From NCBI GenBank assembly GCA_037441705.1, contig JBBIRR010000016.1, positions 1-64,000 on the forward strand: a stretch of 64,000 nucleotides of DNA, read 5' to 3'. A program made the translations under genes and the position numbers. Positions 21-15,749 of the stretch are shown piece after piece. Below the pieces are notes generated by a model. That model searched no databases. It was not told the origin of the DNA and was given only the letters and a program-made list of their open reading frames with translations. Every line of letters begins with the position of its first letter. Within the stretch, counting starts at the first letter, position 1. This DNA comes from Ignavibacteriales bacterium. GTDB taxonomy: Bacteria > Bacteroidota > Ignavibacteria > UBA10030 > UBA6906.

Positions 21-58
21 AAAAAAACAAGCTACCCACCGTGTTGATGGGTAGCTTG
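21..58 (-). terminator. Rho-independent terminator of the alpha-glucan operon
   Basis: 11-bp stem CAAGCTACCCA(28-38)/TGGGTAGCTTG(48-58) followed on the minus strand by a T7 tract (A run 21-27), just downstream of the stop at 95. Confidence 0.85.
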
Positions 59-94
59 CATTCAGGCAGATGGACTCCACGTCCATCGGTGATC

Positions 95-1648
95 CTATTT
101 CATCAGCAGCATCTTCTTCGTCTCGGAAAACTTGCCCGCCTCGAGGCGATAGAAGTAGACACCGGAGGCAAGTCGGTCGCCTTCAAACAACGCGACATAG
201 TTGCCGCGGGTCTGCTCCTGATTGACCAACTCCGCAACCTCCTGACCGAGCAGGTTGAACACCTTCAACGTCACATGCACATCTTCCGGAATCGAGTAGC
301 TGATGCGTGTTGATGGGTTGAAGGGATTCGGATAGTTCTGCCGCAGTACGTACGCCGTCGGAATGCCGCGCACACCGACATCCTCGTTCACGTCGGTAAT
401 CCCGTACGGAGGAGTTTCGGCCGGCATCGGCACGTTCTTCTGCCAGATGTCGATCGGCGCAACATACGTCGCCGGCCAGGTATTGGGTGCAGTCGGTTGA
501 ATGTAGCGGCTGCGGTAGGGGTTCTGCACGCCGAGTCCACCGCCTTCGGTAACAGCGCCGCCGCCCTGATGGCGGTACTCATAGTTGTACATCAGCCCGT
601 AGTGTGTACGTCCCTTCACGAGGAAGGTCACCGTCCAGATACTGTCGGTGGGACCTTGCCGGGTCAGGCGCAGGGATGTTGTGAACGCGCCCTGGTTCGC
701 CCGCTGGTTGAATGCCCACGCATAATCCTGGAACAGGACATACAGGGTGTCACTGTTGGGCAGGAACGGATCAACGTAGCGCGTTGCCGGACCCATGTTG
801 ACGCGCAGCGTAACGCGGCACGTATCGGTCGTGTTGAGGAACAGTCCGAACCGATGGATGTTGCTGAAGTAGTTCGGGTCGGAGGAAACGTTGCCGCCCG
901 ATACGGGCACGACGTACTTGCGGTTGCCGTCGCCGCGGTTGTAGGGATGGTCGTACTGCACGCCGTCGAGATTGGTCCCGAATCCGGGGAAGCGCGTTTC
1001 CGCCGAGGCCGAATCGAGCTTCATGAAGTACTTGTAGTCAATCTCGTCGAACGACAACCAGTTGTACGGCATCGTTACCTGATACAGGCCCGACAACGGC
1101 GAGAGTGTCATTGCTGTGCCGCCCCAGTTATTGAAGCCGCCGCGTACCTGCACCGAATCGGTCGCCGGCACGAACCATCCGATCTGCGTCATCGCCCGCA
1201 TGTCGACCCGCCAGGTAATATTGCCGCTGACGGGCACACTGCACAGGCTATCGTAGTTGAACCATACGACCGGAAGGGTCTGGTTTCCCGCCTGAATCGT
1301 GTAGGTCCGATTGCTGCCGCCTTCCCAGTCAAGTCCGCCGCGATTCGGGGTCTTGAGGAACTTGTACTCGATCTGACGGCTGACCATCGTGTCGCCGAAG
1401 ACGATCTGCTTCTCGAAGATGCTGTCGATGGGCGCGAGGTCGCGGAGCGTGTCCCGCGAATTGCCCCAATCGTTGAAGCTGCCCGCCACACGCACGATGT
1501 CGCCGCTGTCGGGCAAGAAAATGCGTTCGCACATCTTGACGCTCATGTTGACACGGAACGTCACTCTGGTGTTCTGCGCCATCGTGATGCCGGTAAGCAT
1601 CAGAAGAAGCGTCACCAGGACGGAGCTTTTCAGCCACGTGTGCTTCAT
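95..1648 (-). CDS. Secreted multi-CBM (CBM20/CBM48-like) protein with T9SS type A C-terminal sorting domain
   Basis: Signal peptide; three related modules ([39 protein letters not shown]..); C-terminal [20 protein letters not shown]...[10 protein letters not shown]...KKMLLMK; SD AAGGAGG. Confidence 0.8.
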
Positions 1649-1768
1649 GCTAACCTCCTTGTGATTGTGAATGGGAACTGGTGTAAGCTACTGCGGTGAA
1701 TCCTGTTGTCGTGGTGGAAACCGATATGCTACCCTCCTTTCTTTTTTCTGTTAGACGTTGATCGTGAA

Positions 1769-2794
1769 TTAGAAAAGCATGGCGACGGCAAATTTATGAA
1801 CATTGCTCAGGCGCCCGAACTTCTCGAAGGCATAGTCGAACCGCACACTGAGGCCGGGCGTGACGGCGTAATTGACGCCTGCACCGAATGTGAGCTGCTC
1901 TTCGGAGTCTCGCACACCGATGCCTTTGTACCCAACTCGGAATGCCAGGATGCGTTCGATGGCAAGATACTCGGCTCCGATGTTGATGCTCTCCGTATTG
2001 TCGTTCGGATGATACGCATCCAGAGCAAACGTCAGCAGTTGGTTCTCGTCGTCGAGCAGCCGGTAGGCGAACCCGATACGCAGCGTTAGCGGCAAGTCGA
2101 AGTAGTCCGTGGCCAAACGTGCGTTGATATTCTGGTTCGAGCCGGCATTCCGCGACACACCAACCGGAATGAGCAGATCATCGCCGGTCATGTTCATCTT
2201 CGTGCCGAAATTGGAAATGCCGGCACCAAAGGTGAGTCCTTTGAACGGCGTCGAAAAGAGCGTACCGACATCCACGGCGAACCCGGTGGCGCTGGAGTTC
2301 CAGATGTATTCGTTGATGTATTTGACGTTGCCGCCGATCGAGAACCACTCGGTCAGGTTCTTGGCGTACGAAAGGCCGACCGCAAAACTGCCGGCGCTGA
2401 AGAATTGATTCGTTCCTTCCGGCTGAAGTTCGGTCGTCCGTTCCATCTCATCCATCGTCAACGACGTGAAGTTGACGCCGAACGTGCCGAGATCGCCAAT
2501 TGGAACAACCACGCCGCCATAGTTGAAATTGATATCGGCAATCCAGTTGGCATGGGCAAAAACCGCCTCCGTACGATACAGGCGGGCGATGCCGGCGGGG
2601 TTCCAGTACATTGCCGAGGCATCGCTGGCAATGGCAACAAATGCGCCCCCCATGCCCAGCGCACGCGCACCGACCGGGATGCTCAAAAACTTCCCGGCTG
2701 TTGTGCCCACCTTCGAGACCTGAGCAGAGACGGTAACTGGCGCGAGAACGCCGGCGAGGAGAATTCCTGCAAGGATGGTTCGTAGCGTCTTCAT
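1769..2794 (-). CDS. PorV/PorQ-family (UPF0164/FadL-like) outer-membrane beta-barrel
   Basis: FLSIPVGARALGMGGAFVA..DASAMYWNPAG motif, alternating beta-strands, terminal Phe; start moved to MKTLRT (2794) behind SD AAGGAGGA. Confidence 0.85.
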   Translation of the reverse strand: MKTLRTILAGILLAGVLAPVTVSAQVSKVGTTAGKFLSIPVGARALGMGGAFVAIASDASAMYWNPAGIARLYRTEAVFAHANWIADINFNYGGVVVPIGDLGTFGVNFTSLTMDEMERTTELQPEGTNQFFSAGSFAVGLSYAKNLTEWFSIGGNVKYINEYIWNSSATGFAVDVGTLFSTPFKGLTFGAGISNFGTKMNMTGDDLLIPVGVSRNAGSNQNINARLATDYFDLPLTLRIGFAYRLLDDENQLLTFALDAYHPNDNTESINIGAEYLAIERILAFRVGYKGIGVRDSEEQLTFGAGVNYAVTPGLSVRFDYAFEKFGRLSNVHKFAVAMLF

Positions 2795-2807
2795 GCGTTC
2801 ATCCTCC

Positions 2808-5800
2808 TTACTTGATAATGGCAAACTTGCCGACTTTCTCGCCGATCCCCGGCGCATCCACATGATAGATGTAGATGCCGTAGGCGACCTGGAGTTGATC
2901 ACGCGTCAGCACGTTCCACTCTGCGGTACCGTCCAGCAGCTCGCTGTCGTGATCGATGCGCGCCACCAATTCACCGCTGACGGTGTAGATGCGAATGGTA
3001 CAGCGCTGCGGCAGGTGTGTGAAATGTATGGACCGTTCCCCGCGACCGGTCGGGAACGGATTGCGCTCCTCCCATGTCGCCGCGGCAACGTACGGGTTGG
3101 GCACAACTTTGATCTTATCAAGCTCGGACTTTGCTTTGTGCTGATCGGTCCGCTGCGCTTTCGTGGTGAACTCGTACACATCATTCCGACTGAACGCCTT
3201 GTGCGTGACGATCGTGACCGTATCGCCCGCTTGATAGGGAGTGCGTGTCGAGTCAAACTGTGTGCGGAATGCCCAGCCCAGCGCCAGCGTATCGCCGTTG
3301 CGACGTTCCAGGAGAAAGATGTAATCGCTGATGCCGCCGGGGAAGTTGGGATCGTACGCCGCGCTGAAGATACCGGGACCGCCGGTCGGCTCAAGCTCCA
3401 GAAAGGCAAAGGGAACCTTTGCCCGAGTCTTGGGATCAATCACCGTGAAGTTTACCGGCACGGGCGGCACAACAATCATGTTGATGTCATCAATCGTAAA
3501 CTCCGTCGACGTGTCGGCGCCGACACTTCCCGAAAAGACGATCTGATAATCACGGGGCGGCCTCTTATCGGAGACCGTGCCCTCATGCCAGGGGGGCAGA
3601 ACAAACTTCCAGGCGTTCGAGCGGTTCACCCCGGAGCGCAATGTATCGACGCCGAAGCGCGTGTCGTTCTGCAGGATGATCTGCAAACCGTCCGCCACCG
3701 GATGATCGAGCGCGCCGGGATTTCGCCGCTGACCAATAAGCGTATCAGGATTTGTTGACGATTCGGTAATATCGGCCAGCGTGAAGGTTTTTGTTCGAAC
3801 GGTGTCCGGGTCGCCCGGTCTTCCGCGGTACGTCGTATCTTCGAACGTCACCCGATAGCGGTGGTTGTCACGAATCTTCCGTGGGTCAACGATGCGGAAG
3901 CCCACCTTCCCTGTGGCGCTGCCGGCAACCAGTGCCACCTCGCTGACCGAAGGCGGCAGATAACCGGCAACGGGAGCCTCGGGCACGATCACCGCGATCG
4001 ATCGCCCAAACTCCTTCACCTTCCCCGAAATCGGGTCAATGCTGATTTTGAGATTGCTTTCGGCCGGCGCGATGTTGAGCGGACGGTAGCCGCGATCGTA
4101 CGCACGCACGGCGTAGTAGTACTTTTGCCCCGCCTGAACCGACGTGTCCGTCCAGGTATGGTACAGGCCCGTGTCATCGCCCAGATAAAACTGCACGCCG
4201 TTGAATGCGATGGCCGAATCCACGCCGCGTATCCCGTTCACTAAATCGAACTGCGCGACAGGGCGAAGCCACGGCGCGGGATTGCCATACGCGTCGGTGA
4301 TCTTCTGCGCGTCCTGAAAAGCAGGATCTGTTGAACGGTAAATGCGGTAGCCTTCAAAGTCGCGCCCATTGGCGCCCGGAATTCCCGCGAGGAACCGGTC
4401 AACGGATTCCTCGGCAAGATCGTCCCAATACAGCGTCACTTGCGGACGGCCGCGTTCGTTGGTGGTTGCCACGGCTGTGACGGTTGGCTCGAGTGGTGCT
4501 TGCGCGAACTGATAGTCTTCCTCGTAGGCCAGCCGCGCGTAGGTCCGCTTTCGGAGCGCATCGGCTTTCGCGCCGGTGAAGTCGGCGTTGCCCGGACAGC
4601 GCACCGCATTGCCCATCACCACCGCGCAGGAGATGCGCTCGATCTGTCCCGCATTCAAAGGAAAGATGCCTGAAGAAACAAACAGGTCGAACTCTCCCGT
4701 GGGAATAAGTGCCGGATTGACGAACGAGCCGGGAATCATGAACTCTGCCCAGAAAAACACATCCGCCGTCTGGCTGAAGTTGATAGCCCCGGCAGGCAGA
4801 TACTGCACGTTCGTCAAACCAATCTGATCGGCTTCGGAGACGTCGGTCTTGTCGATGTTCGGTTCACCGGGAAACGGCGTTCCGACCCCCGACGTGGGTT
4901 TGCCGTCCCCTTCACCCGGATCGTGCGTGTCCGGTGCGCCGTCCAGTCCCACATCGTCGGTGAAGACGTTCCAGTCTCCGTCATCGTCAATCCCGTTGTT
5001 GCGGCTTTCATCCACCAGCTCATCAATGTTTTCGTCAATGCCGCCAACAACGAGTCCATCACGATCAATGTACTTCTTGCCGATGTCTTCAGACCCGACG
5101 TCGTAGAGAATCACGTTCGTGCCGGGAACGCGATAGCGACGATACGGATCGGAGGCTGCCGCATTGACCATCGCCTGCGTGACCGTCGGGAGGTTCGCTT
5201 CGCAGTTGCCGTCGTTATCAATGTTATCTTTGAATCGTCTGTTCAGGTCTTCAGTCCCGACTTGAATGAGATGAATGGACTGCTGCACGAACGAGCGATT
5301 GTTATTCGGCCAGAAGGTGGTATCGTTCTCCGGATTCGGCGGCCACCGGCCCCACACATCCGTCGCGGCAGCGTTGATCATCGCCTGCGTGACGACCGGG
5401 CTGTTCAGCTCGCCGTTGCTGTTGTTATCAATCCCATCGCCAAACCCAACGCCGCGCTGCTCGCCGAAGGGAATGTAGGTGGAATCTTCATCAATCAAAC
5501 CGTTATGGTTGTTGTCGATCTGATCGCCGGAGACTTCGACGGAAGTTCCGGGAAGCCGCGCCTCGAACAACGACGGCAGGACTTTCGGGCCCGAAGCATA
5601 CTCCGGGCTTTCGCCATCGTTGTCGATTCTATCCACGGCGTTGCCGGGAGTTTCCAGATACAGCGTTGCGGCGGCGCCCACGCATACACCCGCAAACGCA
5701 GGATTGGAACTGATGCCGTCGGAATCGAGAGAAAAGGCAACGTCCAGAATCAGATCGAAATTCGGCGCATCGTCCTGCGAATCGCCGTCCCCGCCGACAA

Positions 5801-6569
5801 AATCGGCAAGCCACAGCGTCACCGCAGTCTTCTTGATGTCCTTCGTTCCGTCGTTTTTGATTTCGTGAATGAAGAACACGGCGTCGGCAACCGAGGCTTG
5901 CGACCATTCGAGTGCGCGGTAGTCAATCAGCAACCCAAGGCCGCGGCGTGTGCGATCGGTAGTATCGGGCGTGTAGAGGAAGCGATTGTAATTATCATCG
6001 CCGACGCGAGCGAACAGTTCCTGGTCGGCGTTGAACTGATTCTTGCCGAAGAACCCGTTCCACTTGCCGCGCCAGCCGGGATCGTTGGCATCGGCAAGCT
6101 TATCGGGCCAGAAGTCAGGCCAGGTGGCCGGTTCATCACTCTTTGCAATTTTGCCCGAAGCAACATTGAAGTAGCCGGGAACCGGATTCATATTCCAATC
6201 GCCGCCTGTCGCCTGGTTCGTACGGAATGCCGGAAGATCAACGATACGCACCACGCGACCTGTATCATCTACCACCTCCGCACCGACAAACAACGCGAGC
6301 AGAGCAACGTACACACGATTGGTATTCTTCGGCCATTCATACGGCACGCCCTGCCCTGCACCGGTGCGCCCGGAGAAGCAAAAGTTGAAGACACTCGTAC
6401 GGAGATTGTTGCCGTCAATTTCGGTGCGGCGCCGAAGCGTCGGGTCAACCCGCTCACGGCTCGGCACGTGCTGCGCTTGCAGGTCCATCACTCCCACTCC
6501 GCACAGCATCGCTGCGACAAGAGACACAACGCCGACTGATCTCATGGTGGTCCTGACATTCAGATTCAT
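2808..6569 (-). CDS. Large secreted protein (1253 aa) with acidic Ca-binding-like repeats, Fn3-like region and T9SS-like C-terminal domain
   Basis: Signal peptide; DxIDN[DN]xxG motifs; DFEGYRIYRS...KYYYAVRAYD Fn3-like segment; tail IKVVPNPY...FTHLPQRCTIRIYTVSGELV...VAYGIYIYHV...KFAIIK. Confidence 0.75.
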   Translation of the reverse strand: MNLNVRTTMRSVGVVSLVAAMLCGVGVMDLQAQHVPSRERVDPTLRRRTEIDGNNLRTSVFNFCFSGRTGAGQGVPYEWPKNTNRVYVALLALFVGAEVVDDTGRVVRIVDLPAFRTNQATGGDWNMNPVPGYFNVASGKIAKSDEPATWPDFWPDKLADANDPGWRGKWNGFFGKNQFNADQELFARVGDDNYNRFLYTPDTTDRTRRGLGLLIDYRALEWSQASVADAVFFIHEIKNDGTKDIKKTAVTLWLADFVGGDGDSQDDAPNFDLILDVAFSLDSDGISSNPAFAGVCVGAAATLYLETPGNAVDRIDNDGESPEYASGPKVLPSLFEARLPGTSVEVSGDQIDNNHNGLIDEDSTYIPFGEQRGVGFGDGIDNNSNGELNSPVVTQAMINAAATDVWGRWPPNPENDTTFWPNNNRSFVQQSIHLIQVGTEDLNRRFKDNIDNDGNCEANLPTVTQAMVNAAASDPYRRYRVPGTNVILYDVGSEDIGKKYIDRDGLVVGGIDENIDELVDESRNNGIDDDGDWNVFTDDVGLDGAPDTHDPGEGDGKPTSGVGTPFPGEPNIDKTDVSEADQIGLTNVQYLPAGAINFSQTADVFFWAEFMIPGSFVNPALIPTGEFDLFVSSGIFPLNAGQIERISCAVVMGNAVRCPGNADFTGAKADALRKRTYARLAYEEDYQFAQAPLEPTVTAVATTNERGRPQVTLYWDDLAEESVDRFLAGIPGANGRDFEGYRIYRSTDPAFQDAQKITDAYGNPAPWLRPVAQFDLVNGIRGVDSAIAFNGVQFYLGDDTGLYHTWTDTSVQAGQKYYYAVRAYDRGYRPLNIAPAESNLKISIDPISGKVKEFGRSIAVIVPEAPVAGYLPPSVSEVALVAGSATGKVGFRIVDPRKIRDNHRYRVTFEDTTYRGRPGDPDTVRTKTFTLADITESSTNPDTLIGQRRNPGALDHPVADGLQIILQNDTRFGVDTLRSGVNRSNAWKFVLPPWHEGTVSDKRPPRDYQIVFSGSVGADTSTEFTIDDINMIVVPPVPVNFTVIDPKTRAKVPFAFLELEPTGGPGIFSAAYDPNFPGGISDYIFLLERRNGDTLALGWAFRTQFDSTRTPYQAGDTVTIVTHKAFSRNDVYEFTTKAQRTDQHKAKSELDKIKVVPNPYVAAATWEERNPFPTGRGERSIHFTHLPQRCTIRIYTVSGELVARIDHDSELLDGTAEWNVLTRDQLQVAYGIYIYHVDAPGIGEKVGKFAIIK

Positions 6570-6582
6570 ACGATCTCCTGAT

Positions 6583-9399
6583 TTAGAAACTCATCTCAAT
6601 ACCAAACTGGATCTGCCTCGGCTCGGAGTAGTAATCCGGCCGCAGCAGGTACTCCTCCAGCGTGTTCAACCGGTAGGCTCCGGAAAGCGCGCTGATGCCG
6701 AGCGAAGCAGGCGTGGCACTTGCCCGACCCGTTTCGCCGTACACCCTCACTTCATTCCGCCGGTCAAACAGATTGAAGACTTTGATAAAGACCGTGACGT
6801 TGACGGGATCGAGACGGAAGTTTTTGAAGGCTCGTACGTCAACGTTGTAGTTGGCCGGAAGCCTGCGTGTGTTGGTGGGACGGTACGCGTCGTTGCCGCG
6901 CGACTCGACCTGATTCAGCACGGGGGTGTAAGGCAGTCCCGAGCCGTACTGCCCGATCACAAACACACCCCAATCTTCTCGACTCAACCCTAACGAGAGA
7001 TTCGCCGTGTGGCGCTGATCCCAATCCAGCGGAGCAAGAACCACCCCCGAAACCACTGTGCCTCGGTCATTGGTAGCGTATCGTGCCTGATCGGCCTGCT
7101 TATCGGAGTTCACCCCCTCGGCCGTCTGGAACGTGTAGGAGAGGTTGAACGAAAGCAGCGTCGTAGGACGCTTGACGACTGAGATGGTAACGCCGCGTGA
7201 GTTTGCGTAATCCTTATTGATGAACTGCGTATAAAATACCGTAGCAGTTTCTCCTGTCGGATCAATCACAGGAATGGGCGCGCTGGTGGAGGTCCAGTCC
7301 CGCGTATCGCGATAGAATCCGGTGATGTCGAAGCTGATGTCGTCGGCGATTTGCTGCTGTAAGCCGAATTCATACATGATGGTCTTCTGCGCGTTGAGGT
7401 CGGCATTGCCAAACACGCCCTGCGTGCCGCTGGCAGTCGTGACCTTGAACTCGGGCCGCTGGTACAGGTCGCTGAACGACGGGAATTGCAGGAAATGTCC
7501 GTACGAGAAGTGTAGGACGCCTCGATCGGTGATCGGGTACGAGATGCCGAAGCGTGGACTGATGCTGGTCTTGGGCCGAGCTTTCTTATACCACCACGAA
7601 CGGCGCGCGGCAACAACGGCAGGGTCGCGCTGCTCGTCATCGGACTTCACGCCGTCATTGTTGAGGTCGACGCGATGTTCCTGCTTGAATGGATTGTAGA
7701 TGTTCGGGTCCTGCGGGTCGGTCAGCACATCTCCCCTCGAATTGAAGTAGTCGAACCGCACGCCGATGTTCACGATCATTTCCTCGTACTCCAACTTGTC
7801 CTGAACGTAGGCCGAGAACTCGATCGGCTGACGCGTATATTCCTGATAGAGCGAGCTGGTACGGTCGGGAATGGCGGGGATGGGCCTCCCCTGGGCATCC
7901 TGACCGTTGGTGACATCATATTCCTCGTAGTAAAGCCGATGCAACCTTACCTCGGCGCCGGCTTTCAGTTGGTGCAGCTGGCTGATCTGGTCGGTGTAGT
8001 CGAACTTCGCTCCGCGCGTTTCGGTGCTTCGTTTGAACTGATGATTGTTTGTGCCGACAATGCGGAATTTATAGGCGCCGGCATTCGCCTGCAGCACGTC
8101 GGGGTCAACAACGTAGCGCGGGTCTAAAGGATTGTCATACAGAAATTCTCTGAACTGTTTGTAGAGATAGTAGGCATTGAGTGTAAAGAACGATGTCGGC
8201 GTTACCGTCTGCGTCCACAGGCCGGTAAGATTATAGTTGCGATCGAACTTGCGGACGTCGCCGGTCGGGATCAGAAAGAAATCGTGATTGTAGTCGCGGA
8301 AGTCAATGGTGCTGCCGATGGCGCTCAGACTGATCTTCGTGCCGCCCCCAAGCTGCGCGGTGAGTTTCGCCTGCCCCGAGCGCCGAATGCGTCCGTTCAT
8401 GGGCATCGGCCTGTCCACGTATGTTCGTGAAAGCAGGTTGCCCGACGCGTCGAAGGTTGCCGAATTGCCGGGCAACGGCGTGCCGTCGGGATTGATGATG
8501 TTGTTGCCGTACAACCAGCCGTTCGAGCGAAAATATCTCCCCGACAGATAGAACGTGAACGGCGAGCCGGGGATCGGGCCGCTTAAACTTCCCTCGATGT
8601 TGTGGTTGGCAAAGATGTTGCGATCCTTTGAGTTGAAGAAAATGCCATCGTCCTTCGCGAAGTAGTCGCCCGTGTACGTCGAAAGATTTCCTGCGAAGCG
8701 CTGCTCGCCGTCTTTGGTGATGATGTTGACGATACCGGACATCGCCTGTCCGTACTCTGCGTTGAACGTCCCGCTGATCACCTGCAGCTCCTGCACGGCG
8801 TTGTTGTCCACCTGCACCGCCTGGCTGTTGTCGAAGGCGTCAGTGATGGAAACGCCGTCCACCCAGTAGGCAACCTCGCTTGTTCGCCCGCCGCGAATAT
8901 GAATACCGCCGTCGCGATCTTGAGTGATTCCCGCCTGCAAGGTAAGCACCTCGGAGACTTCCGACACGGGCAGCGACTTGATGGTGCTTGCATCAACGCG
9001 GGCTTCGGTCGAAGTTAAATCCTTACGCACAATCGGCCGCTCTGCCGTCACCACAACCTCTTCAGCCTGCACAGCCTCCGGCGCGAGCTGGATGTTCTGT
9101 GTTGTCGTCAGATCAACGTTGACCACGACGCCGGTGACGGATTTTCTGCTGTAGCCAACGGAGCTGACAACAAGCGTGTAGGTACCGGGCGGAACGTTGA
9201 GAATCACGTAGTAGCCGTCGATGTTGGTGGCCGCGCCCAACGAGGTTCCTTGCACCACCACCGAAGCACCGACTAACGCCTCGCCGGTTTGGCTATCTTT
9301 GACTTCGCCGGCAATCTTTCCGGTCGTTCCCGACCATGCGGCAGCCGCGCACACCAGCACGGCAGCAAGCAATGCAGTGACACGGAGGGTTGCTGTCAT
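6583..9399 (-). CDS. TonB-dependent receptor with N-terminal carboxypeptidase-regulatory-like domain
   Basis: GKIAGEVKDSQTGEALVGASV N-domain; plug IHIRGGRTSEVAYWVDG..ISGTFNAEYG; barrel SPRFGISYPI; terminal Phe. Confidence 0.92.
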   Translation of the reverse strand: MTATLRVTALLAAVLVCAAAAWSGTTGKIAGEVKDSQTGEALVGASVVVQGTSLGAATNIDGYYVILNVPPGTYTLVVSSVGYSRKSVTGVVVNVDLTTTQNIQLAPEAVQAEEVVVTAERPIVRKDLTSTEARVDASTIKSLPVSEVSEVLTLQAGITQDRDGGIHIRGGRTSEVAYWVDGVSITDAFDNSQAVQVDNNAVQELQVISGTFNAEYGQAMSGIVNIITKDGEQRFAGNLSTYTGDYFAKDDGIFFNSKDRNIFANHNIEGSLSGPIPGSPFTFYLSGRYFRSNGWLYGNNIINPDGTPLPGNSATFDASGNLLSRTYVDRPMPMNGRIRRSGQAKLTAQLGGGTKISLSAIGSTIDFRDYNHDFFLIPTGDVRKFDRNYNLTGLWTQTVTPTSFFTLNAYYLYKQFREFLYDNPLDPRYVVDPDVLQANAGAYKFRIVGTNNHQFKRSTETRGAKFDYTDQISQLHQLKAGAEVRLHRLYYEEYDVTNGQDAQGRPIPAIPDRTSSLYQEYTRQPIEFSAYVQDKLEYEEMIVNIGVRFDYFNSRGDVLTDPQDPNIYNPFKQEHRVDLNNDGVKSDDEQRDPAVVAARRSWWYKKARPKTSISPRFGISYPITDRGVLHFSYGHFLQFPSFSDLYQRPEFKVTTASGTQGVFGNADLNAQKTIMYEFGLQQQIADDISFDITGFYRDTRDWTSTSAPIPVIDPTGETATVFYTQFINKDYANSRGVTISVVKRPTTLLSFNLSYTFQTAEGVNSDKQADQARYATNDRGTVVSGVVLAPLDWDQRHTANLSLGLSREDWGVFVIGQYGSGLPYTPVLNQVESRGNDAYRPTNTRRLPANYNVDVRAFKNFRLDPVNVTVFIKVFNLFDRRNEVRVYGETGRASATPASLGISALSGAYRLNTLEEYLLRPDYYSEPRQIQFGIEMSF

Positions 9400-11087
9400 A
9401 GCGATCTACCTCTTGCTTGAGATTCTGTATGGATGACGATATTCGCCAGAACATCTGAGTTGACGGTGATCGAAGCACGAGACCGAAGATGCCCCACCGC
9501 CGATCGAAATGCCTGCCGCCGACGTTCCTGCGCGAGAACGGCAACGATGTCGCTGCGCGCCTCGTCGAATGATTTCGGTCGGCCCCGCCTGCGCTCCAAC
9601 ACCTTGAACACTGCCCAGTAGGGATCGACGCGCTCAGGTCCCAAGATCTCTCCCACCGAAGCCGCAAAAAACTTTTCTCCCATCGGACCGAACGCCGCCT
9701 GTGTTCCAAAGCCTAACTCGCCGCCCCGTTGTGCGGCCCAGAGACGGATGGAACGCCTTCGCGCAAGCTCTCCAAAGTCCGCTCCGGCCGAAAGCTGTGC
9801 TCTGATCTGTCGCGCTTCCTCTTCCGTCCGCACGAGGATCTCGGCAACATTCACTTCCGGAGGATAGGCAAGATGAGCCTTGTTCGCCTGATACACCGAA
9901 TCCAGAAGTCGCGCATCCCATCCGCTGCTGCCTACGGTATCCTGCACCGAGTCCGCCCATCGGCGCAGGAGAAAACGCTCCCGAACGCTGGCAAGCTGTG
10001 CCTGCACCGCCGAGTCTTTCTCAAGTCCTTCTGCTCGTGCACGCTCCAACAGCACTTCACGCGTCGCAAGGCCGATAGCATAGTCCTTTACGTCATCCTC
10101 GGAATGAACGCGGCGCCGTTGTTTCTCCGTCGTCCATGCGGCGCGTTCCACGAAGTCACGTACCGTCCACAAGCCGCGTGATGTGTGCATGAACTTCATC
10201 GCAGAAATATCCTCCGGCCCCGACCGCGGTTCGCTCAGCGGCACTTCATTGCGAGCCAGCAGCGTCCAGTGTGCAAACACGGTGCGCACCGCCTCGTCGT
10301 TAAACGTTGGGGCAAGACTCTGCACGATTTCGTCCGTCGCCTTGCGTACAAGGTGGTCAATCTTCTTTTCCTGAATTCTATCCGCTAACTTCTGCCGAAC
10401 CTTTGCGTAGTCGTACTCCGATGCAAGCGGCTGCACGATACGGGATTCGGGTTTTACGATAGCGTACCCGATCCGGAGTTTGATGGGATCGGAAATCGTT
10501 CCGACCGGCAGTGTGAACGCCGCCTCTTCAAGCGCAGCCTCCATCTCTCCCCATCCGAACTCACCGAGATATCCGCCGTTGGTTGCAAGGCCCGGATCTT
10601 CAAACACCTCACGCGCCAGGGACTCGAACGTTTCGCCGCTTTGCAGGCGGCGCTTCAATTCCCATGCGCCCTTCTTGGTCTTTGCATACAGATAGCGGGC
10701 AGTCACTCTGGTGTTGAACAGGCGAAACTCCTCCCGCGCCTCCTGCTCGCTTATCCTGATCGTATCAAAGCTGATGCGCCGTGCATAGGCGTCGAGCAAA
10801 GCCTGGCTCATCGCCACTTCCATCCTCCGACGATACACGGAGTCACGATCAAGGCCCTGTGCGGCAACATCGTTGAAGATGAGCCGTTCGTTGATCATGT
10901 TATCCAACACATCATGCCGCAGCTTGATATTGTCCCGCATGCCGCCCTGCCCCAGGAATTGTCCGTAGCGAGCTGCAAATTCGCTGACCGTTATCGGCTT
11001 GCCGTCAACCTCGGCGACGAATTGCTCGCGGCTGCATCCGCCGCCGAGTATCGCCGCCAGACCCACGACCAGCACCGCATGCTTCAT
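9396..11087 (-). CDS. Lipoprotein peptidyl-prolyl isomerase, two PpiC/parvulin domains (SurA/PrsA-like)
   Basis: Lipobox GGGC; VAEVDGKPITVSEF; two rotamase motifs FESLAREVFED..NGGYLG and FGELARRRS..RGGELG; 4-bp overlaps with both neighbours. Confidence 0.85.
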   Translation of the reverse strand: MKHAVLVVGLAAILGGGCSREQFVAEVDGKPITVSEFAARYGQFLGQGGMRDNIKLRHDVLDNMINERLIFNDVAAQGLDRDSVYRRRMEVAMSQALLDAYARRISFDTIRISEQEAREEFRLFNTRVTARYLYAKTKKGAWELKRRLQSGETFESLAREVFEDPGLATNGGYLGEFGWGEMEAALEEAAFTLPVGTISDPIKLRIGYAIVKPESRIVQPLASEYDYAKVRQKLADRIQEKKIDHLVRKATDEIVQSLAPTFNDEAVRTVFAHWTLLARNEVPLSEPRSGPEDISAMKFMHTSRGLWTVRDFVERAAWTTEKQRRRVHSEDDVKDYAIGLATREVLLERARAEGLEKDSAVQAQLASVRERFLLRRWADSVQDTVGSSGWDARLLDSVYQANKAHLAYPPEVNVAEILVRTEEEARQIRAQLSAGADFGELARRRSIRLWAAQRGGELGFGTQAAFGPMGEKFFAASVGEILGPERVDPYWAVFKVLERRRGRPKSFDEARSDIVAVLAQERRRQAFRSAVGHLRSRASITVNSDVLANIVIHTESQARGRSL

Positions 11088-12946
11088 CGCTTCGCTTCCG
11101 CCCGCAGGATGACTCCCGATTTTCCTTGCAGCGTAAGGCTAAGCGCCTTGCTGCCCGCCGTGAACGGCGTCGCGTCGAACACGTTCTTCCACTGCAGCGC
11201 TGCACGTTCGTCAGTCAGAGGAACGGATATCTGCCGGCGCGAGCTTGAGTTGTTCAGAACCACAAGCACCCGATCCTCACCGTACGAGCGAGCATAGGCG
11301 ATGATGTCCCGCGCATCGTCGGCAAGAACCTTCGTGATGTCGCCGAGCTTCAGCGCATCGCTGTCGCGACGGATCTTGATGCATTTGGCGTAATGCGCGA
11401 AGAGGTCGGCGTTGAATCCGTTCGTGTCATCGGGCCGCGGCAAGCCGAACGGATGATGCGACTCGTTCTCGTACGTCATGTCGGCCCACAGCATCGGCTT
11501 GCGATCGTCGGGGTCGTCGGCTCCCCACATGCCGGCCTCATCGCCGTAATACACCGTTGGCGCGCCTACGTAGGTCATCTGGAACATCACCATCAGTTTT
11601 TGTGTCTGCAGCTCGGCAGCATTCGGCTTCCGCACCAGATAGTCCTTATTGTTGGCAACGCTGGTCTCCGCGCCGTCGTATCGAGCGTCGGCGTTCACAA
11701 TTTGCGAACCGAGACGGTCGGTATCGTGACTGCCGAGGAGGTTCATCAGCACATAATTCACCTCCGGTCGGTACTCCGCCCGAAGGCTATCGAGGCGATG
11801 GAAAAACTGGCTGGCAGTGATCTTTCTCGCCTTCGCTTTGAAGAAGTAGCCGCATTCACGCGCAAAGCGGTAGTTCATCACGGCGTCGAATGCATCGCCC
11901 GCAAGCCATGGAGCGGCGTTGTACATTCTTTCGTTCGCGTAATCTTCCCACCAGACTTCGCCCACGAGATACGCTTCCGGATTGATCGTACGCACCCACG
12001 TCCGAAACTCGCGCCAGAACGGAAGCGCGACCATGTCCGCCACGTCCAGGCGCCATCCGTCAACGCCATCGGAGGGGTCACCGTCGCCATTGGGGTCCAT
12101 CCAGCGCCTCACGACGGCATGAATGTGTGCCCGCACCGGTTCTACCAAACCGTTTTCGTCTTCGCGCAGTTCGGGCAGCTCGCGTACTCCGTACCATCCT
12201 GCGTACTCGAACTCGTTCTTCGCTGTCGCCGGATCATCAAATTGCTCGATGATGAACCAGTCCTTGTACTTCGATGCCTTCCCGTTCTTGCGAACATCCT
12301 CGAACGCCCAGAACGTCATGCCGACATGATTGAACACACCGTCAATGACGACGCGTATCCCCCGCCGATGCGCCTCGCGGACGAGCGTGAGAAAGAGTCT
12401 GTCGGCGGATGTCCACTGCCACGTTTCAGGGTTTGCCGGATCTTCGCTCTGCCAGATGCGTCGGTCCCCTTCTGGGTCGGGTCCGAAATTATTGTCGATG
12501 TGGTGATACATCGTTGCATCGTACTTGTGGAGGGAAGGCGACTCGAAGAGAGGATTGAAGTAGAGGGCGTTAACGCCGAGCTGCTGCAGGTAATCGAGCT
12601 TGTCGAGAACGCCCTGGAGGTCGCCGCCATACCGGCGCTGCTGCGCATTATAGTAGAAGCGCTTGCGGTTCTTTTCCTCCCACGGCTGAAGCTTGTACCA
12701 GTCGGCAGTCCAGGATGATACGCGCCATTCGGGAGGCTCTTCGTGAGGCCACGACCCGCGGATGTCGGCCACCGTGGGATCGTTGGATGGATCTCCGTTG
12801 CGGAAGCGCTCCGGAAAGATCTGATACCATACCGCCTCCTTTGCCCAGGCGGGGACGTCGTTGAAGCCCGGCGCTGACGCAAGCACGCGCGAACCCTGCG
12901 CAAGCAGTATCGCGACAAGAGGATATGTAATGAGAAGTCGTAGCAA
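11084..12946 (-). CDS. GH13 alpha-amylase/neopullulanase/cyclomaltodextrinase-type glycoside hydrolase, exported
   Basis: WYQIFPERFRNGD, YGGDLQG, DGVFNH; catalytic DGWRLDVA / GEVW / GSHDT; N-terminal signal peptide. Confidence 0.93.
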   Translation of the reverse strand: MLRLLITYPLVAILLAQGSRVLASAPGFNDVPAWAKEAVWYQIFPERFRNGDPSNDPTVADIRGSWPHEEPPEWRVSSWTADWYKLQPWEEKNRKRFYYNAQQRRYGGDLQGVLDKLDYLQQLGVNALYFNPLFESPSLHKYDATMYHHIDNNFGPDPEGDRRIWQSEDPANPETWQWTSADRLFLTLVREAHRRGIRVVIDGVFNHVGMTFWAFEDVRKNGKASKYKDWFIIEQFDDPATAKNEFEYAGWYGVRELPELREDENGLVEPVRAHIHAVVRRWMDPNGDGDPSDGVDGWRLDVADMVALPFWREFRTWVRTINPEAYLVGEVWWEDYANERMYNAAPWLAGDAFDAVMNYRFARECGYFFKAKARKITASQFFHRLDSLRAEYRPEVNYVLMNLLGSHDTDRLGSQIVNADARYDGAETSVANNKDYLVRKPNAAELQTQKLMVMFQMTYVGAPTVYYGDEAGMWGADDPDDRKPMLWADMTYENESHHPFGLPRPDDTNGFNADLFAHYAKCIKIRRDSDALKLGDITKVLADDARDIIAYARSYGEDRVLVVLNNSSSRRQISVPLTDERAALQWKNVFDATPFTAGSKALSLTLQGKSGVILRAEAKR

Positions 12947-12951
12947 GGGAA

Positions 12952-14025
12952 TCAGCTATTGGGTTCTCCCAATTCAATGCCGCCGTTAAGCTCGGATGTC
13001 GTGAACGCAGGCACTGCGCCACATGTTTTGCGTACGACAAGCTCCGGCAGAAAGGTCGAGAGCTGCGGCGGTGCATCCGGATTCTTCATCCTGTCCACCA
13101 GCATCTGCAGCGCGATAGTCCCCATCGTATGCATGGGCTGCCGCACCGTCGTGAGCTGCGCATGCTTGGCGAGTTCGATATCGTCGAAGCCGACGATCGC
13201 AATATCTTCGGGCACGCGGACGCCAAGCTCACGCGCGGCCTCCAATGCCCCGATGGCCTGCACGTCGCTGGCGATGAACACCGCGGTGACGCGGTCGTGC
13301 CCAACGTTGCGCCGCAAAATTTCCTTCATGGATTCGTATCCCGCGTCGCGGTTGAAGCCGTCCTGCTTTCCATTCGAGGAAATCACGACACGAGCCATGC
13401 TGAACGGAATGTTCTCCTCTTCCAGCGCCGCTTTGTATCCTTCGAGTCGTTCCCGCGCGGGCACAGTCTCCAGGCTCGCGTTGATCATGGCGATGTTGCG
13501 ATGCCCGAGACTGAGCAGATGGCGCGTTGCCTGCATCGCGCCTTCTTTGTTCTTCACCAGCAGCGAGTCGAAACGAGCGTGATATGCATCGACGATCACC
13601 AACGGGAGTTTCATCTCCTCAAACTTGTGAACGTAACTTTCGGGAAACGTCATCGAGAAGAACATCACGCCGTCCACGCGGCCGCCATGCAGCGAGCGGC
13701 GCAGATAGTACTCCACTTCCGAGGGATTGTTCACACCGTACAGAATCAGGTCAATGCCGTATTCGGCGGCTTTGTCCTGCACTCCCTGAAGCACTTCGAT
13801 GAAGAAGTAGTTGGTGAAGAACGGAATGATGGTGGAAACCGTGTTGGCTTTTCGCGAAGCGAGCCGCTGTGCATGGGCATGCGGCTGATAGTTGAGTCGT
13901 TTGGCAACCGCCAGAACCCGCTCGCGCGTCTTCGGTGACACGCTCGGGTGGTTGTTCAGACAACGAGAAACGGTACCAATACCTACACCGGCTTCCCGTG
14001 CAAGATCGTAAATGGTGATGCCCAT
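12952..14025 (-). CDS. LacI-family transcriptional regulator
   Basis: TIYDLAREAGVGIGTVSRCLN HTH; VPEDIAIVGFDD and LTTVRQP sugar-binding domain motifs. Confidence 0.95.
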   Translation of the reverse strand: MGITIYDLAREAGVGIGTVSRCLNNHPSVSPKTRERVLAVAKRLNYQPHAHAQRLASRKANTVSTIIPFFTNYFFIEVLQGVQDKAAEYGIDLILYGVNNPSEVEYYLRRSLHGGRVDGVMFFSMTFPESYVHKFEEMKLPLVIVDAYHARFDSLLVKNKEGAMQATRHLLSLGHRNIAMINASLETVPARERLEGYKAALEEENIPFSMARVVISSNGKQDGFNRDAGYESMKEILRRNVGHDRVTAVFIASDVQAIGALEAARELGVRVPEDIAIVGFDDIELAKHAQLTTVRQPMHTMGTIALQMLVDRMKNPDAPPQLSTFLPELVVRKTCGAVPAFTTSELNGGIELGEPNS

Positions 14026-14060
14026 CGGCGTGAATCAAGCGTAATAAACGGCAAGATCGT

Positions 14061-14074
14061 TGGAAGCGCTTCCA
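14061..14074. promoter_or_regulatory. LacI-type operator palindrome
   Basis: Perfect 14-bp palindrome TGGAAGCGCTTCCA with central CG, typical of LacI-family operators, immediately downstream of the -10 box of the lacI operon. Confidence 0.85.
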
Positions 14075-14075
14075 G

Positions 14076-14105
14076 AAGATAAGGTTAATTTTGAGACTTT
14101 GTCAA
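14076..14105 (-). promoter_or_regulatory. Sigma70-type promoter of the lacI-GH13-TBDR operon
   Basis: Minus strand TTGACA(14105-14100)-N18-TATCTT(14081-14076). Confidence 0.7.
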
Positions 14106-14552
14106 GTAATTTTTTCTGTCGTGCTCACTGGTGGGCGCAGAGGGCGACTTGTCCTTGGTCTTTGCGCTCATGGATTACTTGTGCAATGTCGGTTGTGGTT
14201 TGATCGGAATCTTCACGAGCGCAGACACTGTAATTCAGGCGGGACGGTCTTCCATCACGTTCGCTTCCACACACTTGCACATCAAGAAGCTCGAAGTTCC
14301 AACGCGCTTCACTTGCCGTGTCGTCCCGCGCGAGTTTGAACGTCTGAACCACTCCCGCATTCCATTCTATGTTTCAAGAACGACAGCTATCGCGCGGCAC
14401 TGCAAGAACTCGGCTTCTACCAACTTTCACCAACTTCCGAAAAGAGATCCGTCGCTCTTGGTTGTGTTTTTGTGGATGCGTTCATATATTTTTCGGGAGC
14501 GTACGCTCACTCTCACGGTCACAAGAAGCATTTCACAACACACCGCATCCCC

Positions 14553-15656
14553 ATGGCTGAAGTCGTTCTCGATCATGTTTCCAAAATCTACGACGGCAAG
14601 GTTACTGCTGTAAACGATGTCAACCTGACGATCAAGGACAAAGAATTCATTGTGCTGGTCGGACCGTCCGGTTGTGGCAAATCCACAGCCCTGCGGATGA
14701 TCGCAGGACTTGAAGAGATTAGCAAAGGAACGATCAGCATTGATGGGAAGGTCGTAAACGACGTGCCGCCGAAAGACCGGGACATTGCGATGGTCTTTCA
14801 GAACTATGCACTCTATCCTCACATGAGCGTGTATGAGAATCTCGCGTTCGGGTTGAAACTGAGGAAATACGCTAAGAGTGAGATCGACGGCCGCGTTCGC
14901 AACGCTGCAAGGATACTGGGCATCGAGCAGTTCCTCGACCGCAAGCCGAAGGCCCTCTCGGGAGGCCAGCGGCAGCGCGTTGCGCTCGGTCGAGCCATCG
15001 TCCGCCAGCCCAAGGTGTTCCTGTTCGACGAGCCGCTCAGCAACCTCGATGCAAACCTCCGCGTGCAAATGCGAACCGAAATCTCCCGCCTGCATCACCA
15101 ACTCCAGACAACGATGATCTATGTGACGCACGATCAGATCGAGGCGATGAGTATGGGTGATAGAATTGTGGTGATGAAAGACGGAATTGTTCAACAGGTG
15201 GACACGCCGTTGAACATCTACCACAACCCCGCTAACAGATTTGTCGCCGGCTTCATCGGCAGCCCGACGATGAATTTCATGCCCGGCACCATCGAGCAAA
15301 ACGGGACGCTGAAGTTTGTACAGGAACGGTCCAATCTTGCTCTGCCGCTGCTTGGCGAAACCGCGAAGAAGCTGCAGCCCCGCGTTCGTTCGCGCATCAC
15401 GCTCGGCATCCGACCTGAACACATCTATGCGGTAAGGCCTGCGGGCATCGAGACGGTCGCACCGGTCAAGGCTCATGTTGAAGTGGTCGAGCCGGTGGGC
15501 AACGAAATCTTTGTGTATTTCTCTACCGGCACCGACTCGCAGTATGTCGCGCGCGTGGCAACGGATACTCCCCCGGAGGTCGGGAAGCCTTTCGAGTTCT
15601 ATTTCGACACATCGAAACTGCACTTCTTTGATCAAGAAACCGAGCGTGCAATCTGA
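14553..15656 (+). CDS. Sugar ABC transporter ATP-binding protein (MalK/MsmX/UgpC family)
   Basis: Walker A GPSGCGKS, LSGGQRQRVALGR, DEPLSNLDA, FVAGFIGSP, C-terminal TOBE region; start at MAEVVL. Confidence 0.95.
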   Translation: MAEVVLDHVSKIYDGKVTAVNDVNLTIKDKEFIVLVGPSGCGKSTALRMIAGLEEISKGTISIDGKVVNDVPPKDRDIAMVFQNYALYPHMSVYENLAFGLKLRKYAKSEIDGRVRNAARILGIEQFLDRKPKALSGGQRQRVALGRAIVRQPKVFLFDEPLSNLDANLRVQMRTEISRLHHQLQTTMIYVTHDQIEAMSMGDRIVVMKDGIVQQVDTPLNIYHNPANRFVAGFIGSPTMNFMPGTIEQNGTLKFVQERSNLALPLLGETAKKLQPRVRSRITLGIRPEHIYAVRPAGIETVAPVKAHVEVVEPVGNEIFVYFSTGTDSQYVARVATDTPPEVGKPFEFYFDTSKLHFFDQETERAI

Positions 15657-15749
15657 CCGCGGGTGGCAATCCATCGAACGCCTCGCCGGGAGCCCTCACG
15701 CTCGTGGGATCCTTGCTCCATCTTTTCACTCATCATCGGGAGGTGACGC

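Follow-up and report, generated by a model that had tools for sequence, protein, structure and literature searches.

Glycan foraging in the FCB (Fibrobacterota–Chlorobiota–Bacteroidota) superphylum is currently read through the SusC/SusD pair, and the locus described here raises the question of how an alpha-glucan operon without SusD could capture its substrate at the cell surface. The window, i.e., the whole stretch of 64,000 nucleotides that was analysed (positions 1 to 64,000 of contig JBBIRR010000016.1, assembly GCA_037441705.1, from an Ignavibacteriales bacterium), carries near its start a seven-gene unit. It encodes a LacI-family repressor, a family 13 glycoside hydrolase (GH13), a parvulin-type protein, a TonB-dependent receptor (TBDR), a protein of 1253 aa named BIG here, an outer-membrane barrel of the PorV/PorQ family and a protein with carbohydrate-binding modules (CBM). 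TBDR, BIG and barrel are referred to as the trio. The best-supported reading of the locus is that of a LacI-controlled operon for the capture and import of alpha-glucans (starch/maltodextrin), with the trio as its outer-membrane core. For the mechanism, we regard it as rather probable that the type IX system of protein secretion (T9SS) exports BIG, that its PorZ-like tail stays on a private PorQ-like barrel, and that the tethered beta-supersandwich of BIG captures malto-oligosaccharides for the adjacent TBDR.

The receptor and its large partner

Compared with the SusC/RagA model TIGR04056, the TBDR scored 87.2 bits against a cut-off of 368.25, with the match confined to the N-terminal model positions 1-208. 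Five of the six receptors of the other trios in the genome gave 51-76 bits and the sixth had no match. By this profile, the receptor is not of the SusC/RagA subfamily. An earlier note on this DNA had reported no SusD-like lipoprotein in the locus, and the Pfam scan agreed, since no SusD family was found at E ≤ 0.01 in any of the seven operon proteins. The genome-wide search for SusD gave one match to PF07980, on contig C34, and none to PF14322 or PF12771. This sole SusD_RagB match adjoins the sole true SusC of the genome (C34:6729-10979, locus L092; TIGR04056, 562.6 bits), so that one classical pair coexists with seven or eight trios.

The locus nevertheless resembles SusC/SusD (RagA/RagB; the starch system of B. 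thetaiotaomicron) in several respects. Directly behind a TBDR with CarboxypepD_reg and plug domains comes the gene for a surface partner, both genes are part of a regulated locus with a GH13 and starch-binding proteins, and the module is multiplied in company with different carbohydrate-active enzymes (CAZymes). The co-located CAZymes and the dedicated regulator expected of a SusC/SusD-type polysaccharide utilization locus (PUL) were found as the GH13 and LacI genes of the operon. Besides the low receptor score, the differences lie in the partner, which is here a non-lipidated all-beta protein of 1253 aa with a T9SS-type tail, whereas SusD is an all-helical lipoprotein, and in the obligatory third component, the PorV/PorQ-family barrel. 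Regulation also differs, because LacI takes the place of the SusR, hybrid two-component system or extracytoplasmic function sigma factor of SusC/SusD loci.

For BIG, 7998 candidates were scored, and at least 1900 of them are homologues at E ≤ 1e-5. These are without exception unnamed or "hypothetical", with no precomputed Pfam domain, and the existing names are those of metagenome-assembled genomes of Ignavibacteria, Bacteroidota and Marinimicrobia. A model of residues 54-1253 was built with 70 orthologues (pLDDT, the predicted local distance difference test, 82.6; pTM, the predicted template modelling score, 0.69) and was almost wholly beta by DSSP. A SusD-like fold was thus ruled out. The earlier note had set its proposal against a BIG that folds as SusD or as a plain hydrolase, and neither was found, the model being all beta and having no recognised catalytic domain.

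The first domain of BIG, a galactose-mutarotase-like beta-supersandwich (model 1 to ~640-790), aligned by VIA-align with the N-domain of dextran dextrinase (9ju0; Z 17.9, 253 residues aligned, root-mean-square deviation (rmsd) 3.2), bacterial glucoamylase (1lf6, Z 17.5), glucodextranase (1ulv, Z 17.3), the N-domains of GH94/GH65 phosphorylases (Z 14-16.7) and aldose 1-epimerases (Z 11-12). Since only about 250 of the first ~640 residues align, a region of ~270 residues rich in Asp/Asn with DxDxDG-like repeats (model ~260-530, partly with low pLDDT) is read as a putative insert in the supersandwich. In the alignment of orthologues, W and D columns are invariant, with seven invariant Trp in the first 200 residues. 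The Fn3-type domain (model 636-811) gave Z values of 8.6-9.3 over ~95 aligned residues. The searches with the whole protein were less informative: no relative was found among PDB sequences (best match, the Fn3-like 3mpc at E 0.017), Foldseek on the whole model returned nothing beyond generic arrays of tandem Ig/Fn3 domains (TM below 0.2), and BIG matched no Pfam family at E ≤ 0.01 and no CAZy-type Pfam or NCBIfam family.

The supersandwich could also belong to an enzyme, and BIG would then be a new alpha-glucan-active hydrolase, lyase, transglycosylase or epimerase instead of a binding partner. Its best structural matches are indeed domains of glucoamylase, glucodextranase, dextran dextrinase, the phosphorylases and the epimerases, and about 280 residues (~865-1142) were outside the single-domain search in which no catalytic domain was recognised. 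What matches in the GH15/GH65/GH94-type enzymes, however, is the non-catalytic N-domain, the almost all-beta model contains no (alpha/alpha)6 or TIM-barrel catalytic domain, and no CAZy-type family matches. In addition, the BIG paralogues keep their C-terminal 740 residues while the N-terminus varies beside different CAZymes, which fits a specificity module more than a catalytic core. An enzymatic BIG is accordingly considered very improbable.

The BIG tail and its barrel

The C-terminal domain (CTD) of BIG (model 1090-1200) superimposed on that of PorZ (5m11_A 684-776) with Z 11.7, rmsd 2.1, 88 aligned residues and 28% identity, and the tail matched the NCBIfam PorZ C-terminus at E 5e-4. A hidden Markov model (HMM) made from the C-terminal 125 residues of BIG and of its seven paralogues gave 133-173 bits for the eight BIG-type proteins of the genome and 33.5 bits for the next best protein. 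Most ordinary type A tails matched only the second half of this HMM (~positions 50-120), and the genome's own PorZ (C5:92783-95059; NF052228, 336.6 bits, cut-off 260) matched positions 12-122. As judged from model and profile, the BIG CTD is a PorZ-like T9SS CTD of a distinct subclass. SprA is encoded in the genome.

The co-encoded barrel scored 222.5 bits with the PorV/PorQ family model NF033709 (cut-off 90), which places it in this family, and it was below the equivalog cut-offs of PorV proper (NF033710, 72.9 vs 250) and PorQ proper (NF033711, 90.6 vs 220). Of the 11 PorV-family paralogues that the genome encodes above the cut-off, seven share a locus with a BIG-type protein, and seven of the eight such proteins are accounted for in this way. 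The housekeeping PorV proper (256 bits, contig C19) adjoins PorU, and PorQ proper (256 bits) is on contig C11.

A complex of barrel residues 26-342 with the last 115 residues of BIG was predicted in three runs, together with three controls. The interface score ipSAE was 0.91 in all three runs vs 0.00 in the best control, with a contact agreement of at least 93% and a partner pLDDT of at least 78; in the calibration, the mark was reached by 116 of 157 solved complexes and by 2 of 215 mismatched pairs. The predicted interface is formed by the conserved N-terminal segment of the barrel and the conserved motifs of the tail. The prediction supports the co-encoded barrel as the cognate partner of the BIG CTD. 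The earlier note had held that BIG is kept at the surface by its own PorV-like barrel and had suggested modelling the three proteins together; the part that was run, CTD with barrel, was confident and in line with that idea.

A BamG-like or FadL-like helper, serving as assembly factor or auxiliary channel for the TBDR, would be another role for the barrel, the last domain of BIG being then a mere Ig-like module. Weak matches of the barrel to BamG (E 1.8e-6), FadL/Toluene_X and UPF0164 point that way, as do the PorV-like subunit described for the BAM complex (beta-barrel assembly machinery) of Bacteroidota (PMC12578637) and an extra FadL-like barrel in one of the paralogous loci. The PorV/PorQ model, on the other hand, scores 222.5 bits vs 27.3 for BamG, the complex prediction puts the BIG tail on the barrel with the scores given above, and the number of barrels in the genome tracks that of BIG-type tails. 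A helper of this kind seems to us quite improbable, and the reading of the barrel as the partner of the BIG tail is preferred.

The closest known arrangement is found in Porphyromonas gingivalis. The CTDs of PorU and PorZ are described there as uncleaved, and the barrel PorQ as anchoring PorZ on the surface; PorQ has also been proposed to collect PorZ at the translocon (PMC10947112). PorZ-PorQ and PorU-PorV share with the present pair a surface protein with a T9SS-type CTD and a PorV-family barrel, and the best match of the BIG tail is the PorZ tail. BIG is not PorZ, however, given that the genome has its own PorZ, PorQ, PorU and PorV. The BIG-barrel pair is also multiplied and lies with a TBDR in catabolic loci, not serving secretion, and the retention of its CTD would follow by analogy. 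The earlier note had named SprB/SprF as precedent, for which PorZ-PorQ is the closer substitute. In Flavobacterium johnsoniae, SprB is a cargo with a type B CTD that has a cognate PorP/SprF-like barrel for surface anchorage (PMC9143113). A cargo with a co-encoded, cargo-specific outer-membrane barrel is common to both cases, but the barrel here is of the PorV/PorQ family (a PorP_SprF match is weak and limited to one paralogue), the BIG tail is type A/PorZ-like and not type B, and the pair is coupled to a TBDR and glycan catabolism.

Two further observations concern tails and barrels of this type. On contig C46 (L021:6327-9843), a tandem of two PorV-family barrels neighbours a 514-aa protein, with no TBDR beside them. 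The match of this protein to the BIG-type tail is full-length but weak, and it also matches an F510_1955-type glycosylhydrolase weakly (67.8 bits, cut-off 175). Barrel-plus-tail pairs may exist outside uptake loci. The BIG-like paralogues of contigs C20 (L015:9861-13331) and C6 (L019:11986-15396) have 8 extra residues after the tail, ending in Phe (...QFLDNF and ...ERVDGF).

Conservation and co-diversification of the trio

Orthologous loci were collected by a pattern scan with one genome per species; of 630 candidate stretches, 621 were confirmed as relatives, and the best 80 of these correspond to 67 loci. Counting only loci whose contig reaches far enough, the TBDR lies directly upstream of BIG in 63/63, the parvulin protein upstream of the TBDR in 54/54, the barrel directly downstream of BIG in 56/56 and the CBM protein within 4 kb in 48/48. 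GH13 and LacI are less constant, being found in 17 and 13, respectively, of the 25 loci that extend 9 kb or more to either side. By the depositors' labels, the loci come from Ignavibacteria, Melioribacteraceae, Rhodothermales, Calditrichia, Neomarinimicrobiota, Fidelibacterota, a KSB1 bin and others.

Within the genome, the order TBDR-BIG-barrel occurs again on five other contigs, and a rearranged trio is present on a sixth (C7). The neighbours differ from copy to copy: a sugar ATP-binding cassette (ABC) transporter and a parvulin protein on C42; LacI, a CBM9 T9SS protein, GH94 and a GH144-type enzyme with T9SS tail on C21; KduI, DUF4861 and GH88 on C18; and none noted on C20 and C5. Among 20 loci sampled from the best-scoring matches in 18 other genomes, all have TBDR and barrel and 19 have the order TBDR-BIG-barrel. 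The neighbourhood survey that the earlier note had proposed thus found the triad conserved, in orthologous and paralogous loci alike.

The C18 locus, which is of uronate type, has an extra 505-aa FadL/Toluene_X-like barrel directly after the PorV-like one (L017:15019-16536). In some related genomes, a second BIG and barrel, or a second LacI and TBDR, lie beside the alpha-glucan locus (L067:140-3353, L085:17298-21164, L087:19510-20571). Since these second trio parts are directly adjacent, trios occur in tandem.

The distribution of the tail was followed with its profile. At E ≤ 1e-12, matches were found in 159 of 301 sampled genomes of the phylum, in 7/7 of the same family and in nearly all of the same class, often with at least about 10 copies per genome among the best 14 candidates scored for each. 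Three large families of the phylum gave matches in 0/63, 1/22 and 1/16 genomes. In 1.84 billion cluster representatives, many of the matches being fragments, 17333 proteins were found at E ≤ 0.001, 5918 at E ≤ 1e-10 and 240 at E ≤ 1e-30. Three of the top matches (P0122, P0123 and P0137; ~2200-2400 aa) match the middle of the tail 12-15 times, each time partially and in tandem, and are repeat proteins, not BIG-like. In five carrier genomes of other lineages, SprA was present in all five, and SusD matches numbered 0, 0, 1, 1 and 2.

Pairwise distances over 27 trios gave correlations of r 0.96 for TBDR and BIG, 0.94 for TBDR and barrel and 0.89 for BIG and barrel, each reached by 0/2000 permutations. 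For the genome's own 7 trios, the values were 0.89, 0.81 and 0.77, reached by 1, 14 and 9 of 2000 permutations, respectively. Since these seven are in one genome, species history cannot be the cause there. By these sequence distances, TBDR, BIG and barrel diversify together.

This coupling bears on whether BIG might be an ordinary T9SS cargo, either released or lipid-anchored in a PorU-dependent way, with the barrel as a dedicated shuttle only and the TBDR importing alone, as SusD-less TBDRs of Proteobacteria do. A free cargo is not expected to follow the TBDR always, as BIG does, nor to diversify with it to the extent just given, both across the 27 trios and within the genome. Moreover, the BIG tail forms a separate subclass resembling the uncleaved PorZ tail and not the ordinary type A tails, and a housekeeping PorV is already present in the genome. 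In favour of the cargo reading, the barrel belongs to the PorV/PorQ family, whose member PorV has been described as a shuttle (PMC10947112), the locus also encodes an ordinary type A cargo, and none of the present findings places BIG on the TBDR. On balance, we consider it unlikely and prefer a BIG retained by its barrel beside the receptor.

The probable alpha-glucan regulon, the proposed mechanism and the operon layout

The repressor has HTH_LacI and a periplasmic-binding-protein fold, with a conserved palindrome in its own promoter, as expected of the LacI family; it relates to the NCBIfam RbsR, CcpA and PurR models, all under their equivalog cut-offs. Exact copies of the palindrome, TGGAAGCGCTTCCA, number only 2 across the 3.83-Mb genome. 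The second one (C11:10639; locus L091:6640-6653) is directly upstream of an amylase operon (genes L091 6656-13749) encoding two GH13 proteins, the second with a T9SS tail, and a GH57 that carries CBM20 and CBM48; this is probably a second operon of the same LacI regulon. Among related loci with LacI, a copy with at most 3 mismatches was found within 350 nt upstream of LacI in 19/19, the background being 0.026 per 370 nt.

The GH13 of the operon matches the NCBIfam models of maltodextrin glucosidase and cyclomaltodextrinase, below their cut-offs. It is probably a neopullulanase/cyclomaltodextrinase-like enzyme of the periplasm, as suggested by a signal peptide and the lack of a T9SS tail.

The CBM protein was modelled with pLDDT 90.2. 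Its residues 25-132 have the CBM20 fold, as judged by VIA-align with 8x8k (STBD1 CBM20 with maltotetraose; Z 12.1, rmsd 1.9, 92 aligned) and the glucoamylase 2vn7 (Z 12.1), and a partial Pfam CBM_20 match (23.5 bits vs a cut-off of 23.3) puts this first module in the family. Modules 2 and 3 are tied to CBM20 by internal similarity alone, module 1 against 2 giving z 10.6 (0/200 shuffles) and 1 against 3 a weaker z of 4.6. Residues 431-517 have the T9SS CTD fold (PorU 6za2, Z 9.9; NucA substrate 8glk_D, Z 8.9) and belong to the type A tails by TIGR04183 (43.4 bits, cut-off 23) and PF18962 (33.7, cut-off 27). The search of PDB sequences returned a T9SS tail (8glj_D, E 5e-4) and, at E 0.12, the starch-binding domain of a glucoamylase, and nothing else; Foldseek on the whole model gave only generic arrays of tandem Ig/Fn3 domains (TM below 0.2). 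Taken from the model, the CBM protein is a secreted starch-binding protein with three CBM20-like modules and a type A CTD, as the earlier note had read it.

Downstream of these components, the divergent MalK-type ATPase is probably part of the inner-membrane uptake step. The paralogous locus on C42 has a sugar-binding protein and two permeases, with no ATPase gene among the ORFs (open reading frames) scanned there, so the MalK gene beside the LacI operon may serve it. Because of the GH13, the CBM20 fold, the operator shared with the second amylase operon and the adjacent MalK, the locus and the second operon are assigned, from their sequences, to one alpha-glucan regulon, and the same assignment in the earlier note is strengthened. 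A peptide or siderophore as substrate was rejected, given the GH13, the CBM20 protein and the amylase regulon.

The proposed sequence of events is as follows. An inducer would free LacI from TGGAAGCGCTTCCA in this operon and at the second operon of T9SS-secreted GH13 and GH57-CBM20 amylases, both sites being present in the genome and repression being presumed. BIG would cross the inner membrane by Sec, with the parvulin protein of the operon as a locus-specific periplasmic chaperone or peptidyl-prolyl isomerase for it, and then the outer membrane via the T9SS translocon SprA, as its PorZ-like CTD suggests. The CTD would remain uncleaved on the co-encoded barrel and tether BIG to the surface, as PorZ on PorQ. 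This tethering is proposed because of four in silico results: the fold, the complex prediction, the one-to-one pairing in the genome and the co-diversification. Gene order and coupling, together with co-diversification, suggest that the Trp-rich supersandwich would bind malto-oligosaccharides and pass them to the TBDR, so that BIG would do the job that SusD, and perhaps SusE/F, does in Bacteroidia. The triple-CBM20 protein may hold starch at the surface while the T9SS amylases of the second operon act outside the cell. Imported oligosaccharides would be trimmed by the periplasmic GH13 and brought into the cell by the MalK-powered ABC system. With other N-terminal domains, the same trio may serve other glycans in this genome and in non-Bacteroidia FCB lineages.

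SusE and SusF are surface glycan-binding proteins that serve a TonB-dependent transporter. In BtuB-BtuG, a surface lipoprotein likewise captures substrate for such a transporter (10.1101/2025.07.01.662609). The accessory surface protein is common to these systems and the proposed one; their partners, however, are lipoproteins delivered by Bacteroidota lipoprotein export, whereas a protein-barrel anchor and T9SS export are proposed here.

Contact of BIG with the TBDR, glycan binding, tail retention and T9SS dependence are what we infer, and several points weigh against this mechanism. The supersandwich is a fold common to the non-catalytic N-domains of glycosidases and phosphorylases and to mutarotases, and it shows no ligand; residues ~865-1142 of BIG were assessed only as part of the whole model. 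The BIG tail gave no match to PF18962 or TIGR04183 at E ≤ 0.01 and only the PorZ tail was hit, so that, with the tail short of every curated T9SS CTD model, T9SS dependence is deduced from fold and context. Structures of PorV-type barrels with a bound CTD already exist, and likeness to them may account for the high complex score; with related complexes solved, such likeness is the least that the result shows. The controls did not include housekeeping PorV or PorQ against the cognate barrel. In the genome, an eighth BIG-like gene (C6) converges with its TBDR and lacks a barrel gene in its neighbourhood, and one of the sampled loci is ordered TBDR-barrel-BIG. The 20 sampled loci, drawn from the best-scoring matches, are biased to strong ones, and relatedness inflates the correlation tests of the trios.

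A bolder version is that TBDR, BIG and the PorQ-like barrel form one stable machine, in which a T9SS-delivered, SusD-analogous cap opens and closes over the receptor. In most non-Bacteroidia FCB bacteria, the apparatus for glycan capture would then be built by the T9SS and not by lipoprotein export, and SusC/SusD-based finders would miss thousands of PULs. We put this forward tentatively, at less than an even chance.

No description of the TBDR-BIG-barrel trio was found in the full-text literature, subscription journals and supplements being outside the scope of the search. PULDB is described as predicting PULs from the susCD tandem (PMC5753385). In a metagenome study, susCD is reported as scarce in Ignavibacteriales gene clusters and its replacement is left unstated (PMC10576277), and the receptors mentioned in the Caldithrix genome paper are only those for cofactors (PMC5317091). 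If the trio is the replacement, it provides a searchable marker for carbohydrate loci in Ignavibacteria, Rhodothermales, Calditrichia, Marinimicrobia, Fidelibacterota and KSB1. PorV-family barrels would also gain a role in nutrient uptake beyond that in secretion, and the trio would be a second, independent way to place a substrate-binding protein on a TonB-dependent transporter.

The layout of the unit and the domains of BIG are collected in Table 1.

Table 1. Positions in the window of the operon features, the domains of BIG and the adjacent MalK gene.
Feature	Positions	Strand	Basis or remark
Promoter-like site TTGACA-18 nt-TATCTT	14076..14105	-	10/12 consensus matches; sole such site directly upstream of LacI
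Perfect 14-bp palindrome TGGAAGCGCTTCCA, probable LacI operator	14061..14074		Directly after the promoter-like site
LacI-family repressor, 357 aa	12952..14025	-	Pfam LacI and Peripla_BP_3
GH13 with signal peptide and Malt_amylase_C	11084..12946	-	Pfam Alpha-amylase, 188 bits
Protein with SurA-N, two parvulin domains and lipobox-like LGGGC	9396..11087	-	Pfam/NCBIfam, translation
TBDR, 938 aa, with CarboxypepD_reg, plug and barrel	6583..9399	-	Pfam
BIG, 1253-aa ORF	2808..6569	-	No Pfam family at E ≤ 0.01
BIG signal peptide, ~residues 1-32, ending ...LQA/QH, without lipobox	6474..6569	-	Translation and consensus of orthologues, read by eye
BIG galactose-mutarotase-like beta-supersandwich, ~residues 54-690	4500..6410	-	VIA-align of the model
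BIG Fn3-type domain, ~residues 689-864	3978..4505	-	VIA-align, second look
BIG beta-rich region, ~residues 865-1142	3144..3977	-	DSSP of the model
BIG PorZ-like CTD, ~residues 1143-1253	2811..3143	-	VIA-align, NCBIfam, HMM
PorV/PorQ-family outer-membrane barrel, 342 aa from internal Met	1769..2797	-	NF033709
CBM protein, 517 aa, with type A T9SS tail	95..1648	-	Weak CBM_20/48/53 matches and Por_Secre_tail
Intrinsic terminator	27..59	-	14-bp stem, 5-nt loop, T run
MalK-type ABC ATPase	14472..15656	+	ABC_tran, OB_MalK and TOBE_2; divergent from the LacI operon

Profile scans with Pfam and NCBIfam, together with the ORF translations, define positions 27-14105 as one co-directional unit on the minus strand with seven genes. 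The genes overlap by 4 nt or are separated by 5-13 nt, with 120 nt only before the last one. Promoter, operator and terminator were located at the two ends of the unit, and all seven genes were recovered, as the earlier note had described them. For the parvulin protein, two parvulin domains were found, and its status as a lipoprotein, also part of that description, depends on the lipobox-like motif read by eye. For the barrel gene, the internal Met is the most likely start, and with it the overlap with BIG disappears. Taken as a whole, the consensus scans for promoters and terminators showed no enrichment over shuffles (5 vs 5.5 expected and 13 vs 14.7 expected, respectively); therefore, the credibility of both sites rests on their position, on the palindrome and on its conservation.

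Upstream of LacI, a 415-aa ORF on the minus strand (14427-15674) was discarded as an antisense shadow of the MalK gene. With this ORF as the tblastn query, a conserved stretch was found at the place of MalK in close relatives (loci L029-L031 and L046). After the MalK gene, the window encodes a sodium:solute symporter (SSF, 297 bits) and a dipeptidyl peptidase IV/S9 peptidase (15750-19612, plus strand).

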